A DNA stretch of 64,000 bases from Clostridiales bacterium (GCA_022793655.1 JAAWDG010000013.1:128230-192229); one strand, 5' to 3'; counted from the first letter of the stretch, positions 31,998 through 63,879 are shown. Notes: generated by a model from the sequence alone, not told the origin. Program-made: numbers and translations.

Positions 31998-32446
31998 GCC
32001 TCTGGTGATCATTGAAAACTGAATAGCACAGCGCATTTTTTACCTTCCTTCTGCTGTCGGGAAACCGGCAAGCCACAAGAGATCATCTCAGACGGTGCGG
32101 GGCATCCGTACCGAAGGTCATGACAGGCAGGAGGGACAATGATACTTGCGTCCAGTCACAGGTCGAGCGTTGAAGCAGAGTGTAATGCTAACCGAGCAAA
32201 TATGCGAAAGCATATTTGACCGCAAAGCTATGCTTTGCGTGCCGTCGCAACCAATGAGGGCGCCTCGGAGAGTTCCTCGGAGGGGTGAGATTCCCATGAG
32301 GTCTGAAAGGCTTTGCCTTTCATCTGCACAGACCGGAAAATGCGTTCCCGTGTATCCGAGGGGCGGCGAGGATCGAATATCGGTAAAGAACAAAACGATT
32401 GATACGAATACAAGGCGGCTGTTTCCAGAATGCAAACAACCGCCTT
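31998..32446 (+). ncRNA. Candidate large structured non-coding RNA / leader upstream of mazF (class unknown)
   Basis: Stacked hairpins: 32053-32073 (GAAA loop), 32091-32119, 32166-32189, 32197-32218 (9 bp, GAAA loop), 32221-32239, 32300-32334 and 32412-32446 (13 bp). More GC-rich than its flanks. The ORFs crossing it lack an RBS and look non-protein-like. Confidence 0.4.
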
Positions 32447-42092: not shown

Positions 42093-42376
42093 CGAGATAA
42101 TTAAGTATTTTTCTTATGGATATTTTGTTTTATAACCCCAGTAATTATGCAACTTTTCAAAGACTTTGTTTATTTTCTTCATTATTCGCAAATTTATATT
42201 GCAAGAAAATTCCCCAAACGAATAAATCTGAACCAATTGGTTTATTTGATCATCCTCAATCTACTTGCTTATTTTAAAGTATATTCTTTCTGTCATTGTT
42301 CAATAGTCTTGTATTACGTGAGTTCAAATCCACCACCAAAACCGCAAAAATATCTTTTTTATAGTGCTTAGACAGA

Positions 42377-42414
42377 AAAGCGACAAGCTAATGCTTGTCG
42401 CTTTTTCCTTTTTT
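42377..42414. terminator. Intrinsic terminator (usable on both strands)
   Basis: 12-bp stem AAAGCGACAAGC / GCTTGTCGCTTT, TAAT loop, and T-rich tail. Confidence 0.65.
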
Positions 42415-55492: not shown

Positions 55493-56155
55493 TCATTTAG
55501 ATTTATGTTTTGATGCAGGGCTACGGCGGGATTCCTTTATTTTTCGCAGAGCTAATTTTCGTATCTCAGACGGCAGTGTGTCTAAGTAAGGTTCACTTTG
55601 TTTGGGATAGCAAATCATACATTCAGCAAAGAGCCAAGCGGCGGCCATATTAAAATAATATTCTCGGTCAGAAAGGCCTTGTATAATGGTAAGAACCGTT
55701 TCGATCCATGCTTCTGTCACATAATATTGCAACAGAGAAACCAAACCAAAACGCGCCGTATATTCATGCGAAGCGTCAATCCATTCTTTGATATAGATGA
55801 GACTGCGTTCCTTTTCTTGTCCTAAAAACTTTAAGGTGCCGCATACGCAGTCACAGACAGCCCAGTTATCAATATAGGGCAGAAAAAACTGAGTAACCTT
55901 CATTTTTTCATCGTAGGGCATTGCCGCATAGCCGATGACCATGCCAAAAAGCATGGTGCTTTCGTAAGTGGAAAAATCGGCTGTCTGCAAAAAGGTTTCG
56001 CTATCTTTTTTAGCAAGTTCTTTCGCGGTTTTACGCAATATTGGCATGCGCACACCCAGCATGCGCTCGGGCGCATAGTTCGGAATGAGTTTTAGATTAA
56101 ATTGTTTATATTTTTCATCAATATGGTCTTTTAAAAGATCGTAAACGCGGTTCAT
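55493..56155 (-). CDS. DNA alkylation repair protein (AlkD-like HEAT-repeat family)
   Basis: LIPNYAPERMLGVRMPILRKTAKEL and IDNWAVCDCVC motifs. Confidence 0.7.
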   Translation of the reverse strand: MNRVYDLLKDHIDEKYKQFNLKLIPNYAPERMLGVRMPILRKTAKELAKKDSETFLQTADFSTYESTMLFGMVIGYAAMPYDEKMKVTQFFLPYIDNWAVCDCVCGTLKFLGQEKERSLIYIKEWIDASHEYTARFGLVSLLQYYVTEAWIETVLTIIQGLSDREYYFNMAAAWLFAECMICYPKQSEPYLDTLPSEIRKLALRKIKESRRSPASKHKSK

Positions 56156-57492
56156 TCTTTACTGTCCTTATTGTTAATTTCCGCAATCCACTTTTGGGTG
56201 TCTTTATAATCGCCAAGCGCCTCAAATAATGCTAATGCTTCGTCATATTTACCATCATGGTAAGCATACAGCGCGGCTTTATATTTTTCGTTTTTAAATT
56301 CTTCGGTGGCTTGTTCTAATTGCTTTTCGCTATCCTGATAATCGCCCAGTTTACGGAATAGTTCGATGGCCTTTTCGTACTCACCCTTACTTAAATAATC
56401 AGAAGCGATTTTGTATCGACAAGCCAAAACTTGGTCGGCGCTGTCTAAAAATGATTCTAATTTTTCAAAATCAGCGGCGGCTTTCTCATATTCACCCTTT
56501 TCCTGTTTCAGCATAGCTGAACAATAGGCGGCATATCGTTCGGATTCGCTGTAAGAGCCGAGTTCTGTAAATGCAGTGTATGCTTCGTTAAAGTGACCCC
56601 AAGTAAAACTGTGTTTAGCCTTTTCATATTTTTCGGCTAATTCGTTTTCTTGTTTGGTATCTTCTATATCGGCTAGCCTTTGCTTGGCGTCTTTATAGTC
56701 GCCTAACGATTCAAAGAGTTCCTTCGCTTTGGTAAAATTGTTGGCTTGTTGTGCGCGGACTGCCTCTGCATAGATCGCGTCAAGAGAAGCGGTTTTTGCT
56801 TGGGCCGCTTTTTCCTTGCTGTCTTTGTAATCGCCAAGAGCTAAGAAAGCTTTTTCTGCTTCGGTATAATCGCCCTTTGCTAAATAAGCGGCCGCTTTTG
56901 TATAATCTTTTTCCAAAATGGCTGAAGAGGTTTGTTGGTTGGCTGTTTCGCTTTTATCTTTGCTGTCTAAAAATCCATCTAAAGAATCGAACAGGCGGAC
57001 CGCCTCATCATAATTCTCATCCTGCATAGCTAAAATGCCGCGAAGATAGATAGTATATTTCTCGCTGTCTTTATAGTCGCCAAGATCTTCAAAAAAAGAC
57101 AAAGCCGCTTTGTAATTTTGCGCTTCAAAGCGCTGTTTGGCTTTATTATATTGGTTGGCAGGACGAATGGCAAACAGATAAACCAGCAGCAGGGTAGTCA
57201 AAAGAACAACGCCCGCTGCGATGGGGATGATTTTTTTTAGCAATGCTTTGCGTTTTAGACGCTTCATTTCTTCAGGCGAAACTTTTCGATGCCCTTTTGA
57301 TTCAAAGGCGGATAAATCTGCGTATTTACCATGATTGATCTGCTCTGGCGTTGCTTTCAGAGAATACAGCTGCTCATCGCGCGTCATTTTTTGCCGCATA
57401 GATTCGTCGACCATTTCTTCATAGCGTTCTTCAAATGCATCGCTTTGGTCAGACATTTTCTGATTTTGAAAATTTGCATTTTTGTTATTCAC
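56152..57492 (-). CDS. Membrane-anchored repeat protein (six or more F.xLGDYKDS repeats, TPR-like)
   Basis: GTG start, one TM helix (IIPIAAGVVLLTTLLLVYLFAI), then repeats LGDYKDSEK, LGDYKDSKEK, LGDYKDAKQR, LGSYSESER, LGDYQDSEKQ and LGDYKDTQKW. Confidence 0.7.
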   Translation of the reverse strand: MNNKNANFQNQKMSDQSDAFEERYEEMVDESMRQKMTRDEQLYSLKATPEQINHGKYADLSAFESKGHRKVSPEEMKRLKRKALLKKIIPIAAGVVLLTTLLLVYLFAIRPANQYNKAKQRFEAQNYKAALSFFEDLGDYKDSEKYTIYLRGILAMQDENYDEAVRLFDSLDGFLDSKDKSETANQQTSSAILEKDYTKAAAYLAKGDYTEAEKAFLALGDYKDSKEKAAQAKTASLDAIYAEAVRAQQANNFTKAKELFESLGDYKDAKQRLADIEDTKQENELAEKYEKAKHSFTWGHFNEAYTAFTELGSYSESERYAAYCSAMLKQEKGEYEKAAADFEKLESFLDSADQVLACRYKIASDYLSKGEYEKAIELFRKLGDYQDSEKQLEQATEEFKNEKYKAALYAYHDGKYDEALALFEALGDYKDTQKWIAEINNKDSKE

Positions 57493-57593
57493 TGTAAATG
57501 ATCTCCTTTCTTCACCAAGTTCGTTGTATTATAAACATTGGTCTGTATAATTTTCATGGTAACCCACAATTGGATGGTATTGAAAACTATTAA

Positions 57594-57852
57594 GCTGTTC
57601 TTACTTATATCATAAAGTTTTCAGCTCTCTCAAAGTTTATCGTTTCCGGCATTGCTGGAATGCAGCCTTGCAGGCTGCAAGATAAACTTTCTAAGAACAA
57701 GCCATACGGCTTGTTCTTATTATATCGTATCTATTCAACTACCTTGAAATTTAACGGTGCCGGTTTATCCGGCAGGACGTGCAAGCGTACCTGCACGGCC
57801 AGTTAAATTTCTTAAGAACAAGCTGCAAAGCTTGTTCTTATTATATCGTATC
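57594..57852. repeat. Two and a fraction tandem ~121-bp units, each a three-way-junction module plus an 11-bp hairpin plus a TTATATCGTATC box
   Basis: Conserved boxes GCT(T)GTTCTTA(c)TTATATC(a/g)TA at 57594, 57709 and 57830. Hairpins AAGAACAAGCC/GGCTTGTTCTT (57693-57718) and TAAGAACAAGC/GCTTGTTCTTA (57813-57840). Closing stems AAAGTTTATC/GATAAACTTT (57632/57681) and GAAATTTAAC/GTTAAATTTC (57746/57802), each enclosing two unrelated hairpins. Confidence 0.7.
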
Positions 57853-57916
57853 GTTTCAAGATATGCAAGGACAATAGAAATAATCCTTAATTTATTTGTT
57901 TTTTCAAAATTTGTAT

Positions 57917-59359
57917 TTACAACAAATGGCGAATAAGCGGTGAAATGATTCGCAAAAGTGTGTATTTGATCTTAGCCGATGTAGAGAGCGTATGTTCTTG
58001 AAACAGCGGACCGTATTCATATTGACCGTCTTTTTGCATGACGCGGCTGGCCTGTATATTTTCTTCTGCGCTTTCTCTTAGCTGTTTGTTCAGTGCTTCA
58101 CAGTCTACCGCAAGCATCAGTTCTGTGTCAAGATAGGCGCTTCTCATATCCATGTTAAAGGAACCGACAATACTCATTCTTTGATCAATTAAAATCGTCT
58201 TGGTGTGCAGCGAATGCTGACCGGCATATTCATAGACGTTGGCACCGGTTTTCCATATCTTTTGTTTTTGATTAAGATAATCACAACAGCCGAATGGATT
58301 TGCGCCCGATTCAGCGGCATTGGTAATGATTTTAATTTCTCGCTCTCCAGCACATAAATCTGTTAAATCTTGATACATGCGTTTGCTGCAAATAATATAG
58401 GGGGTTATACATACAATTTGTTCGCCCTGCGACATTAATTCAACCATAGAATACCAAAGTTCTGGCTCTTTGTTAATGGGTTTCGGCGGATTGGACAGCA
58501 GTGTTATTTTATTGGCCGGCATGGTGATGGCCTCCCAGTTGGGTGTTTCAAATGCTTCTGCGTAATCGATTTTTATTTGCTTATAGCGGGCCAAAAGCGA
58601 TTCTTTGGCTTTTTTTATTTCGTCATTTTCTTTACAGGAATAGGGTTTGCAGCAGTCAAGCGACCAAATCTCATCAAAATAGTTTCTTAGTTGATTCATC
58701 GAACTATGTTCGTTTTGCTCTGTTTGGTAAACAAGGAGTTCTCTATCCATATTTTTCGTGTCACTATAGTTACCCAGAAACAAATCATAAGTGTTACGGC
58801 CGCCGAGCAGATAGGCTGTGTGGTCAATCACAAACGTTTTGTCATGCAGTCTAAGAAGTGCTTTCCATGGGAGAAAAAGTTGGACCGGGTTGTATCGTTT
58901 GATTTGGATATTGGGGTGGCTCGCTAACGCTTTGAAATAGTTGCTTTTGGAAAGGTGAACGATAGATGTGGCGTGGTCGACCAGCAGTTTAATTTGTACC
59001 CCGCGTTCGGCCGCTTGCAAAAGGGCCGCCATGATGTCTTTTCCGCTTTCGTCGTCCATCATATCAAAGGTGGAAAATAGAATTTCTTCTTTTGCGGTTT
59101 CAATTAACATGAGTCGATACAAGAGTGCATCCTGATTATCGTCAATACAAGCCACCCGATCTGTGCCCGGTGTGTCGCTGTAACAATCTGCCGGATTGAA
59201 CGATGCTTGATAATCTTGGCTCACTTCTTTGTGATGAAGCAGCGGTAAAATGGAAGCTAAAACAAGCCAAAGCAAAATGACAGCAAGTACAGCGCAAGTA
59301 ATTTTGATGCCTGTCTTACCTTTGCTTGTAGTGTGTTTTATGTTTTTTTCTTTTTTCAT
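57917..59359 (-). CDS. Phospholipase D / cardiolipin synthase-like protein (two HKD motifs, N-terminal TM helix)
   Basis: LHDKTFVIDHTAYLLGGRN and LHTKTILIDQRMSIVGSFNMD. Confidence 0.8.
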   Translation of the reverse strand: MKKEKNIKHTTSKGKTGIKITCAVLAVILLWLVLASILPLLHHKEVSQDYQASFNPADCYSDTPGTDRVACIDDNQDALLYRLMLIETAKEEILFSTFDMMDDESGKDIMAALLQAAERGVQIKLLVDHATSIVHLSKSNYFKALASHPNIQIKRYNPVQLFLPWKALLRLHDKTFVIDHTAYLLGGRNTYDLFLGNYSDTKNMDRELLVYQTEQNEHSSMNQLRNYFDEIWSLDCCKPYSCKENDEIKKAKESLLARYKQIKIDYAEAFETPNWEAITMPANKITLLSNPPKPINKEPELWYSMVELMSQGEQIVCITPYIICSKRMYQDLTDLCAGEREIKIITNAAESGANPFGCCDYLNQKQKIWKTGANVYEYAGQHSLHTKTILIDQRMSIVGSFNMDMRSAYLDTELMLAVDCEALNKQLRESAEENIQASRVMQKDGQYEYGPLFQEHTLSTSAKIKYTLLRIISPLIRHLL

Positions 59360-59521: not shown

Positions 59522-59551
59522 AAAAACAGACTGCAAAAGCAGTCTGTTTTT
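59522..59551. terminator. Bidirectional terminator
   Basis: ACAGACTGC-AAAA-GCAGTCTGT flanked by A4/T4+ runs. Confidence 0.65.
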
Positions 59552-59553
59552 GG

Positions 59554-59934
59554 TTAGGCTGTGCCAGCATCGGATACCTGTTGGTCGTGCAGACCGAAGG
59601 AAACGCCGATGGCACTGTTCACTTGTTCCATAATTTCGCCGTCAATATGGCCCATTTTTTCTTTGAGCCGTTTTTTATCAAGAGTCCGAATTTGCTCAAG
59701 CAGAATAACCGAATCTTTTGCAAGACCAAATTCCTCGGCACAGCCGATAATGTCTATATGAGTGGGAAGGCGGGTTTTAGACATCTTGCTGGTTATGGCC
59801 GCGGCAATGACCGTTGGACTATATCGGTTGCCAATGTCATTTTGTACAATGAGAACGGGTCTCACGCCTCCCTGTTCGCTGCCTATAACGGGACTGAGGT
59901 CCGCATAATAAATATCGCCTCTTTTTATGTTCAC
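59554..59934 (-). CDS. mazF: MazF/EndoA-type endoribonuclease toxin (chromosomal copy, GTG start)
   Basis: [47 protein letters not shown]...LPTHI...[25 protein letters not shown]. Confidence 0.9.
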
Positions 59935-60199
59935 GATTTTTCCATCTCCTCGCTTTTAGTGTTGTCCCGTACTGCGCTTTTTAGTCACAGTCAATTTCAT
60001 TTTATGAAAATTACCATGGATAGTGAAAGACTGGATTTTCATGTTTGTTTATGGTAAAATAGGCAATGATAAATCTTGAAGAAGATAAAGCGAAAACGAA
60101 GAGAAAACTTATACACTATGCGCGATTAACCTATTTTTACGCTTAGCAGAAATATTGGATTGCGGGAATTGGCGCGGGTAAGAAAGGTGAACTGATTGT

Positions 60200-62008
60200 A
60201 TGAAAATGATCTGGCAGTATTTAAAGCAATATAAAAAGGAGTGTGTTTTATCGCCTCTATTTAAAATGTTGGAAGCGGCGTTTGAACTCTTGGTGCCTCT
60301 GGTAGTGGCTTCTGTTATTGACAGGGGACTTTCCGGGCCTGACCGTGCGCACATCTATCGTATGTTTGCCATATTGATTGGCCTTAGTGCGCTTGGTCTT
60401 ATCTGTTCGATTACAGCGCAGTTTTTTTCAGCAAAAGCGGCGGCTGGGTTTGCCGCTAAATTAAGACATGCGCTGTTTGCCCACATACAGTCTCTTTCTT
60501 ATGCTGATCTCGATTCGTTCGGCACACCCCGCTTAATCACACGCATTTCCAGTGATGTGACGCAGGTGCAGACAGGGGTCAACTTGTTCTTAAGGCTTAT
60601 CATGCGCGCTCCGTTTGTGGTGTTTGGCGCCATGATCATGGCCTTTACAGTTGATGTTAAAAGCGCGCTGGTATTTTGCGTGGTGATTCCGCTGTTATTG
60701 TTGGCTGCTTTTGCGATTATCGTTGGCTGTATTCCTCTCTATAAAAAAGTGCAGGATCATCTTGACGCGGTGACAATCTCTGCCCGCGAAAATTTAACGG
60801 GTGTGCGTGTCATTCGCGCATTTGCGAAAGAAGAGCAGGAGCGAAAAGCATTTGATCAAAAGAATGATGCTCTTTGCGCGGTGCAGAAATTTACCGGTAA
60901 AATATCAGCGCTTTTGAATCCCATCACGTATTTGATTATTAACATTGCCATTGCTGCCCTTATCTATACGGGTGCGCTTCGCGTGGACAGCGGCGTGTTA
61001 ACACAAGGGGAGGTTGTGGCGCTTTATAATTATATGGCGCAAATTTTGACCGAACTGATTAAAATGGCGAATTTAGTGATTACGATGACGCGGGCGGCGG
61101 CTTCCACCGGTCGAATTCAGGAAGTATTTGCCGCGAGATCTTCCATGGAGAATGGAATCGATCAACACTTTGACGGGGCAGAGGTGTCTTTTCATGATGT
61201 TTCTTTGACCTATCGCGGTGATACAGCCCCCTCTTTATCGAATATTACGTTTACGGCAAAAGAAGGACAGACGATTGGTATTATCGGCGCGACCGGCTCG
61301 GGCAAAAGCACATTGGTGCATTTGATTACTCGTTTTTATGACGCGACAAAGGGCGAGGTGTTCGTCGGCGGAAAACCGGTTCAGTCGTATGATACAGCGG
61401 TGCTTCGTGATGCGATTGGCATTGTGCCGCAAAAGGCGGTATTGTTTAAAGGAAGTATCCGAGCGAATCTGGTAAATGGTGCGCCTGATGCAACCGAAGA
61501 AGATATTCATCATGCTTTAGAACGGGCGCAAGCGCTTGAATTTGTAGAAAAAAAGACACATGGCATGGAAGAAATGATCGAACAGGGCGGGCGCAACTTG
61601 TCAGGCGGCCAACGACAGCGCCTAACTATTGCCCGTGCTTTAGTCAAAAAGCCGCGCATATTGATTTTAGACGATTCATCATCGGCGCTCGATTATGCGA
61701 CTGAAGCTTCTTTACGAAAATCCATACAAACTTGTGATTTTCATCCGACGGTGTTTATTGTTTCGCAGCGGGCTTCTTCGGTCATGCATGCCGATCAGAT
61801 TATCGTGCTCGAAAATGGTGAGATGGTGGGCTTGGGCCAACATGAAGAATTGTTAAAAAACTGTCCGGTTTATGCAGAGATCTATGATTCTCAATTTGCT
61901 CCGCAGGAGCAAGGGGCTTCGCAGGAGCAAGGGGCTTCGCAGGAGCAAAGGGCTTCGCAGGAGCAAGGGGCTTCGCAGGAGCAAAGGGCTTCACAAGAGG
62001 AGTCTTGA
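60200..62008 (+). CDS. ABC exporter half-transporter A (TMD-NBD) with a degenerate catalytic site and a repeat tail
   Basis: Walker [10 protein letters not shown] and signature LSGGQRQR. Walker B is ILILDDS (Asp in place of the catalytic Glu) and the H-loop is IVSQR (Gln in place of His). C-terminal (QEQ[GR]AS)x5. Confidence 0.9.
61903..61992 (+). repeat. Five tandem copies of an 18-bp unit (GCAGGAGCAARGGGCTTC) inside the ABC gene 3' end
   Basis: Copies start at 61903, 61921, 61939, 61957 and 61975, with a single A/G polymorphism between them. They encode [12 protein letters not shown]. Confidence 0.95.
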
Positions 62009-63828: not shown

Positions 63829-63854
63829 CATCAATTTTATGTACAAAACAAAAA

Positions 63855-63879
63855 AGACGCTTATAAAGCGTCTTTTTTT
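63855..63879 (+). terminator. Intrinsic terminator after the ABC pair
   Basis: GACGCTTATAAGCGTC palindrome followed by a T7 run. Confidence 0.7.

Follow-up and report, generated by a model that had tools for sequence, protein, structure and literature searches.

What is a block of ~120 bp, repeated two and a half times, doing between two genes of an uncultured gut bacterium? We analyzed a 64-kb window (the whole stretch of DNA under study) of an NCBI metagenome-assembled genome labelled Clostridiales bacterium, taken from a contig of 193 kb. An intergenic gap (57493-57916) between two minus-strand genes, one for a phospholipase-D-family (PLD) protein and one for a TPR-like protein, holds two units, at 57632-57731 (unit A) and 57746-57852 (unit B), plus a decayed third (unit C) at 57547-57614. 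The feature is real, structure-selected, and uncatalogued, a locus-specific duplication of a leader and promoter confined to a small number of uncultured genomes. It is not a new widespread RNA class but the leader of one gene, local and limited to certain lineages. The repeats are probably a tandemly duplicated, promoter-proximal segment of the 5' leader of the TPR gene, read on the minus strand.

Repeat units and their folds

A preliminary description of the window had reported tandem units with a three-way junction, a hairpin, and a box, and every helix that it listed is present where it was placed. Each unit has a 10-bp closing helix enclosing two hairpins (together a Y-shaped module), then a 12-bp hairpin (H) and a 13-nucleotide (nt) box that are identical in both units. 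Y module B spans 57746-57811 on the minus strand, with its closing helix at 57746-57755/57802-57811 and inner hairpins at 57758-57774 and 57776-57799. Y module A spans 57632-57690 on the same strand, with its closing helix at 57632-57641/57681-57690 and inner hairpins at 57644-57660 and 57661-57679. The hairpin had been described with an 11-bp stem; it is present, but the stem measures 12 bp, and its outermost T-A pair contains the last base of a promoter -10 hexamer. The copy in unit B, H_B (57813-57840, minus strand), is a perfect 12-bp palindrome (TAAGAACAAGCT/AGCTTGTTCTTA) whose first base is that last T of the -10. The copy in unit A, H_A (57692-57719, minus strand; TAAGAACAAGCC/GGCTTGTTCTTA), has stems identical to those of H_B. 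The two units meet in a junction (57719-57745, minus strand) where the box appears for a second time (GATACGATATAAT, 57731-57719), its TATAAT lying at 57724-57719. Read on the minus strand, a unit runs from the promoter's final ~20 nt (TTGAA.. GATAC GATATAAT) through H, one nucleotide, and the Y module to a last ~8 nt (CAAGGTAG or GAGAGAGC).

The array is a 62-nt repeat with a period of 121 bp (repeat family D1). The hairpin stems together with the box occur exactly twice in the window against an expectation of 0. A strict pattern, in which a perfect closing helix of 9 bp encloses two perfect hairpins, is matched at one place in the 64 kb (unit B) and in none of 100 Markov shuffles. Fold significance was expressed as a z-score against 200 shuffles per unit. 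Unit A folds at -46.7 kcal/mol (z = -9.0) on the plus strand and at -43.3 kcal/mol (z = -6.7) on the minus strand, and unit B at -46.3 kcal/mol (z = -6.1) and -47.5 kcal/mol (z = -7.5), respectively. None of the 200 shuffles folds as well as unit A or B, and the described fold forms on either strand.

Unit C (57547-57614, minus strand) retains a relic of the box, TATGATATAAG (57614-57604), and only the 5' arm of the hairpin, TAAGAACAGC (57603-57594); beyond these, a closing helix of 10 bp (57590-57581/57556-57547) encloses just one small hairpin. Three copies of the sequence TGTTCTTA, set 116 and 121 bp apart (family D4), bear out the partial third copy noted at 57594-57614; that copy belongs to unit C with its own closing helix. 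Unit C folds at -16.4 kcal/mol (z = -1.9) on the minus strand and at -10.0 kcal/mol (z = +1.2) on the plus strand. Its helices carry G-U pairs on the minus strand only, and the closing helix folds only there.

Copy searches took in the window, 13 fetched loci, and phage, plasmid, and viral collections, and no other copy of the unit was found in any of these. BLAST against phages and a pattern scan of viral contigs returned nothing for the units, and BLAST against plasmids gave a single 38-nt match (E = 5e-3) in the primase gene of a Calothrix plasmid, which we take as chance. The preliminary description had also pointed to Rfam, where no family matches the units: with Rfam 15 at the gathering threshold, pemK RNA is the sole match in the window. 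A permissive scan (E <= 10) of 57400-58000 gave only eukaryotic microRNA and small nucleolar RNA models at E >= 0.23, far below threshold.

Comparison with orthologous loci

Exact look-ups of the two flanking proteins gave no record; relatives were reached through homologue searches with these proteins, and syntenic loci with the order PLD - TPR - DNA_alkylation were fetched for comparison; this order is common to L001, L002, L003, and L012. Locus L001 (the same as L006, GCA_022791195.1) has 82-86% protein identity to the window, L002 (identical to L010 and L011) 83-87%, and L003 (identical to L012) 62-64%, while L007, L008, and L009 show 35-41% for the TPR gene. As a neutral yardstick we used the 4-fold degenerate sites of the flanking genes, which are 46-54% identical between lineages (~50%). 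A scan of genome contigs for orthologous leaders returned only four loci, one of them duplicating L001, and additional cluster members are identical copies of L002 or L003. A scan of metagenome proteins for further orthologous leaders found none, and a 32-nt promoter pattern had no matches in metagenome contigs. The unit-bearing lineages in these data are therefore three: the window, L001, and L002/L010/L011.

Read in gene orientation, the box is GATACGATATAAT, and in unit B (57841-57852) it comprises the end of the spacer and the -10 of TTGCAT-17-TATAAT. The conserved promoter region of the TPR gene lies at 57840-57889 on the minus strand, with the -35 TTGCAT at 57868-57863, a 17-nt spacer, and the -10 TATAAT at 57845-57840; the exact 29-mer promoter occurs once in the window. 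Its spacing falls within the 16-18 bp that separate the TATAAT -10 and TTGACA-like -35 of sigma-A-type promoters. L001 and L002/L010/L011 have an identical promoter, and over the surrounding ~50 nt they show 94-96% identity to the window, against ~50% at 4-fold sites. Thus the box corresponds to the spacer end and -10 of a predicted sigma-A-type promoter that is conserved at orthologous loci, which agrees with the earlier recognition of a minus-strand TATAAT -10 in it. In L003/L012 the promoter core is kept with three substitutions, ~30 nt before the ribosome-binding site (RBS) and with no repeat unit, and in L007 and L008 a promoter-like TATAAT/TATAGT leads straight to the RBS. These loci show the putative promoter core to be older than the repeats. 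From the usual 7-nt spacing after the -10, transcription is predicted to start near 57833.

Only the last ~20 nt of the promoter were duplicated, and the -35 lies outside the duplicated block. At the box of unit A, the -35 position reads TTCAAG (3/6) at 18 nt. L001 has two orthologous units; the box of the first is intact, and that of the second has decayed to TTTCTGTTCTCAT (TTCTCAT) with the hairpin kept and the Y module shortened by deletion. In L002 a single unit is present, and its decayed hairpins no longer give a significant fold (z = 0.06). A relic of the box, GAAACTAGATATAG, comes next and leads directly into sequence alignable with the ancestral leader of L003. Such a box relic in front of an ancestral-type leader is the signature of a tandem duplication of the promoter region. 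The repeats are, judging from these alignments, an insertion or duplication between promoter and RBS in one small clade. Since the window and L001 units align as orthologues, the duplication is older than the split from the sister lineage L001.

Two further observations concern the promoter region. The ~20 nt upstream of the -35 (AAGGATTATTTC[T/C]ATT[G/A]T[C/T]C) are almost invariant in the three lineages (window 57869-57889, minus strand; L001 6478-6497; L002 3534-3553), and the promoter spacer is as invariant as this segment. The two together suggest a possible regulator-binding site or UP element beyond the promoter hexamers. The TPR promoter may also bear a loose resemblance to forespore-type (GCATA ... 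xATAATA) promoters. A second promoter-like sequence, ATGAAA-18-TATAAT, lies at 57557-57528 on the minus strand, just upstream of the TPR RBS. Its TATAAT is not kept in L001 (TTCAAT) or L002 (TATCTA), and the site may be a lineage-specific second promoter or chance.

Selection on the shape of the Y modules

We then asked how well the helices of the Y modules are kept as their sequences diverge. An alignment of the three intact units with MAFFT misplaces the inner hairpins of unit B; no covariance model was built for this reason, and in-register pairs were counted by script instead. In our own in-register alignment, with helices anchored by their flanks and only three unit-bearing lineages to draw on, 65 of 68 helix cells are Watson-Crick, and 10 of 25 positions show compensated double changes. 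Helix P1 (units B, A, and L001-1) contributes 28 Watson-Crick cells of 30 with four positions changed on both sides, P2 (units A, L001-1, and L001-2) 24 of 24 with four compensated positions, and P3 (units A and L001-1) 13 of 14 with two. When neutral evolution was simulated on a star tree with the observed 4-fold divergence, 58% of cells were paired on average, and none of 20000 runs reached 90%. By this measure, the Y helices are held in pairing by compensated substitutions and their shape is selected. The proposal that selection keeps the shape of the junction module thus holds up against the orthologues, with compensated pairs at ~50% neutral identity.

The same comparison divides another early claim, that the internal helices are unrelated between units. 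Those of unit A are homologous, in register, to the L001 units with compensated changes, so the claim fails for them. In unit B, the closing helix is in register with unit A and L001-1, but the inner hairpins are in register with no other unit, although hairpins stand at the same places; these inner hairpins appear to have been replaced. The loops of the Y modules are unrelated (GCA / UUCC / ACUA / UACG and AAU / UUU / AUAAA), and the junctions consist only of U and AC/CC. Among the compared units, no unpaired nucleotide in the junctions or loops is conserved. Since there are no conserved unpaired bases, the Y modules most likely act by shape, perhaps as compact spacers or decay-protecting structures near the 5' end, by analogy with the structured leaders of Gram-positive mRNAs, rather than as ligand sensors. 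Our confidence in any specific function of the Y modules, as judged from these comparisons, is low.

Hairpin H evolves differently from the Y helices. Within each genome, the window and L001, the stems of the two copies show no differences. Between the window and L001 there are four differences, common to both copies; one is compensated, and one makes a G-G mismatch in both L001 copies, which are identical to each other (AAAAGCAAGCC-TTCG-GGCTTGGTTTT). The loop and top pair of H_A and H_B differ at five of six positions, with the top pair complementary in both (C-G vs T-A). Since gene conversion would have homogenized the loops too, the stems of the window H seem to be constrained at the sequence level in both copies.

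Hairpin H and the TPR leader

With its 12-bp stem, GC core, and 4-nt loop, H has the stem of an intrinsic terminator, for which at least 5 bp with some GC and a short loop are required. Its format (A-tract, GC core, 4-nt loop, T-tract) is the same as that of the terminators at 59522-59551, 63850-63878, and 42376-42405. Between the PLD stop (57917) and the promoter, no terminator-like site was found in the window (57300-58100), L001, or L002. In L003, where H is missing, the PLD gene is followed by a canonical terminator, CAGGTCTGATG-TATCG-CATCAGACCTG-TTTTCT (L003 6436-6462 / L012 2262-2290). In L003/L012 the terminator comes first, then ~130 nt of unrelated spacer, and then the conserved TPR promoter; the window has the reverse layout, with the hairpin following the promoter.

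We propose that H_B probably acts on transcripts coming from the PLD gene, as a terminator or 3'-end hairpin insulating both genes. RNA started at the promoter cannot contain the outer half of the 5' arm of H_B, yet that half is conserved and complementary; we therefore infer that H_B would act on read-through from the PLD gene. A role as PLD terminator is likewise suggested because the H-bearing lineages have no other PLD terminator and L003, without H, has a canonical one. The TPR mRNA would start inside H_B and carry a structured leader of ~340 nt made of module B, H_A, module A, and unit C, ending in the proximal leader (57493-57546, minus strand) with its RBS GGAG at 57506-57503. In this mRNA, base pairing could join the free 3' arm of H_B to the 5' arm of H_A, with module B enclosed between them. 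That pairing is isoenergetic with the minimum free energy structure (-109.6 vs -109.8 kcal/mol) and is itself the minimum free energy structure before the 3' arm of H_A is made. Promoter-initiated transcripts could then pass H_A, and read-through transcripts would face two hairpins.

A bolder version of this arrangement would be a promoter-selective terminator relay, built from the same palindrome at the start site and 121 bp downstream, and we regard it as speculative and rather unlikely. Read-through RNA would hold both complete hairpins and be stopped. RNA starting in the first hairpin would have only its 3' arm, which the Y module would hold beside the second 5' arm, leading to pairing and no termination, and the relic with a 5' arm only (unit C) would mop up freed 3' arms. 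Since such a relay imposes three pairing constraints instead of two, the two H copies would have to stay identical. It would explain the frozen, identical H stems of each genome while other helices drift, the free loops, and the one-armed last copy.

Weighing the duplicated-leader reading

Of the three roles put forward in the preliminary description, that of serial regulatory leaders for the downstream minus-strand gene agrees best with the data. The reading of the repeats as a duplicated segment of the TPR leader draws strand support from two facts: the minus strand carries both flanking genes, and unit C folds only there. Several observations weigh against it or limit it. The -10 matches consensus at six of six positions but the -35 at only three of six, below the cut-off of a simple promoter scanner, which demands a -35 match of at least 4/6. 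Under a simple terminator rule (at least five T in the 8 nt directly 3' of the stem), the window H fails on both strands, its T-tract being interrupted (TTCTTA), and the L001 H passes on the non-gene strand only; the gene strand, GTTTTACA, is one T short. The energetics of the arm swap follow automatically from having two identical palindromes and so are not independent evidence, and in L001 the GC core of the first hairpin copy (H_1) would still lie within the promoter-initiated RNA, which weakens the swap there. Wobble pairs give no strand signal, with about three G-U on each strand: read on the plus strand, two of the three in-register mismatches become G-U, and read on the minus strand, unit C and the P2 extension of unit B contain G-U pairs. 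That wobble pairs are nearly absent agrees equally well with DNA-level maintenance of palindromes and with RNA. The units are also dispensable, having decayed in L002/L010/L011 and, by truncation, in unit 2 of L001. Furthermore, the start site, termination at H, and strand of action are inferred from the sequence.

Among the rivals, one would make the structures an evolutionary by-product: a promoter duplication whose palindromes were made and kept perfect by replication template switching (quasi-palindrome correction). The mechanism is documented (PMC8794818); copying the exact complement, it mimics compensatory evolution. It would suit the nearly perfect Watson-Crick pairing with almost no wobble on either strand, the replacement rather than gradual change of the inner hairpins of unit B, the free decay of units in L002 and of L001 unit 2, and the restriction to three lineages. 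However, three different helices remain paired in three or four units at ~0.5 neutral identity, the frozen sequence of the H stems in both copies, next to randomized loops, favors selection over mutation bias, and template switching is not known to maintain nested three-way architectures. We think this account unlikely. The idea that the units are tandem small RNA genes on the minus strand, raised in the preliminary description, is in our view quite improbable. In it, the promoter of unit B would yield an RNA of ~140 nt that comprises module B and stops at H_A, and the TATAAT of unit A or the proximal site would drive the TPR mRNA. A perfect -10 does stand before each window unit, H_A does follow module B, and box and H are 100% conserved between the two window copies. 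Against this, the second box has no -35 (TTCAAG at 18 nt), which only the distal copy has, and the L001 second box has decayed with its hairpin kept, so the sole conserved promoter there must read through the second hairpin (H_2) to serve the TPR gene. H also lacks a good U-tract on the gene strand, and there is no conserved single-stranded seed region.

Function at the level of DNA, with H as a palindromic operator at +1 in two copies 121 bp apart or the units as recombination or mobile-element sites (attC-like, oriT-like, or a miniature inverted-repeat transposable element, MITE), we consider very unlikely. The half-sites of H are conserved around a variable center and overlap the start site, and the closing helix of unit B happens to match the attC R''/R' consensus (ATTTAAC/GTTAAAT). 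But the positions flanking the loop are complementary in both copies (C-G, T-A), as in a hairpin and unlike an operator spacer, and the spacing of H is not kept (121 bp in the window vs ~115 bp in L001). No regulator, integrase, or relaxase adjoins the locus, unit A (GTTTATC/GATAAAC) and L001-1 mismatch the attC boxes, and there are no extrahelical bases and no cassette open reading frames (ORFs). With no dispersed copy in any of the collections searched and no consistent attC-type boxes, the early suggestion of recombinase- or protein-binding modules is not borne out. Least probable of all, we judge, are plus-strand RNAs, either antisense to the leader or independent small RNAs, in which the Y module would be followed by H as terminator and the U-rich box as tail. 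A structured domain, a hairpin, and UUAUUAUAU in series form a canonical small RNA or riboswitch layout, the L001 H meets the terminator rule on this strand only, and two mismatches turn into G-U here. Yet there is no conserved plus-strand promoter (TATTCA/TATACA lack the invariant final T, and TTGTAT-16-TATAAT at 57523-57551 is absent from L001) and no plus-strand gene that needs termination. Moreover, unit C folds on the minus strand only, and the box is accounted for by the minus-strand promoter, being kept even where no unit exists. A weak terminator on the plus strand, as the preliminary description proposed, is conceivable in view of the L001 hairpin, but no conserved promoter or gene on that strand would supply it with transcripts.

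Several narrower candidates were considered and set aside. For an operator, no further palindrome or paired half-sites were found elsewhere in the window. For an integron attC site, only unit B matches R''(RYYYAAC)/R'(GTTRRRY), the helices are perfect and unbulged, and no credible ORF lies between units. MITE, oriT, inverton, and CRISPR-like readings lack partner genes, dispersed copies in the sequences searched, or cassette content. For a convergent dual-promoter "rifampicin alarm" layout (PMC12802891), the antisense promoter would be the weak candidate at 57523-57551, which is not shared by L001. An LhrC-like array of tandem small RNAs fails on copies that have no complete promoter and terminator of their own, and the core of a riboswitch or ligand-sensing attenuator on the absence of conserved unpaired nucleotides in junctions and loops. 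Small ORFs inside the units have no RBS and run across helices, and we do not regard them as coding.

Relation to known systems

In the way they would work, the units resemble terminator-plus-promoter junctions, structured 5' leaders, and serial attenuators, and they belong to no named family. With the intrinsic terminators of Firmicutes, many of which work in both directions, H shares a GC-rich core with a 4-nt loop, set between an A-rich 5' flank and a T-rich 3' flank, and a place downstream of a gene without another terminator. Unlike them, its T-tract is interrupted, it overlaps the -10/+1 of the next gene, and it is duplicated 121 bp downstream and then followed by a Y module. Structured 5' leaders and 5'-proximal stabilizing stem-loops are known from Gram-positive mRNAs such as B. 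subtilis aprE and hbs (PMC7509114; PMC5737220). The units share with these a stable structure just downstream of the start, shape over sequence, and the lack of a ligand core, but differ in being modular, tandemly repeated, and built on three-way junctions. Tandem riboswitches and attenuators also place a promoter, a folded domain, and a terminator-like hairpin in series before an ORF, with alternative pairing of arms possible. The units here differ in having no conserved junction or loop nucleotides and no Rfam family, in being confined to three lineages, and in that some of them decay.

Cis-acting processive antitermination RNAs, such as HK022 put and the Bacillus EAR element, offer another possible likeness: a folded RNA of this kind after the promoter would let polymerase pass downstream terminators and would separate promoter-initiated from read-through transcripts. 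Such RNAs are marked by sequence conservation and by defined RNA polymerase contacts, neither of which is evident in the units. Finally, hairpins made by template switching share with the units perfect stems, multi-nucleotide "compensatory" differences, and lineage specificity (PMC8794818). That likeness speaks to mutational origin, not function, and leaves the frozen H stems of both copies unexplained.

If the duplicated-leader reading is true, the locus is a compact natural case of a promoter nested between a stop codon and a terminator, and of a structured leader growing by tandem duplication with its shape held by compensatory change over a short evolutionary distance. It would serve as a case study for the origin of leaders and insulators, and the arm-swap relay, if real, would offer a design idea for synthetic insulators. 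No long-standing question is opened. The element is limited to a small number of genomes of uncultured gut Clostridiales, one of which can do without it, and it is not tied to a known regulatory ligand or pathway.

Flanking genes and other features of the window

The gene upstream of the repeats (57917-59359, minus strand) encodes a 480-residue phospholipase-D-family protein with an N-terminal membrane helix (Pfam PLDc_2, 6.6e-36) and 100% identity to NCBI MCI8590174.1 ("MAG: Clostridiales bacterium"). The downstream gene (56152-57492, minus strand) encodes the 446-residue TPR-like protein, which is 100% identical to MCI8590173.1 and consists of an N-terminal region, one membrane helix, and repeated LGDYKDS/TPR-like units. 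About eight copies of the LGDYKDS/A motif, spaced ~35-40 residues apart, follow the single membrane helix. Full-length homologues of this protein are rare: of 5.8 billion sequences, only ~10 reach at least 35% identity. The TPR gene overlaps at its end with the DNA-alkylation-repair gene that follows (55493-56155).

Directly upstream of the PLD gene is a PemK/MazF-type toxin gene (59554-59934, minus strand; Pfam 6.2e-36), an adjacency kept in L001 and L002. A textbook terminator, AAAAACAGACTGC-TTTT-GCAGTCTGTTTTT, stands directly after the PemK gene at 59522-59551. No antitoxin family was recognized in the 81-residue ORF upstream of PemK (60109-60354). The pemK RNA motif (RF02913, 61.2 bits) lies at 32136-32299 on the plus strand, in or next to a low-GC stretch (GC 0.35, 28-32 kb). 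Additionally, an 18-bp tandem repeat, GCTTCGCAGGAGCAAGGG, with 5.3 copies and 94% matches, was seen at 61898-61992 on the plus strand. It sits within the 3' end of an ABC-transporter ORF (60200-62008) and would encode a C-terminal repeat of a 6-residue peptide.

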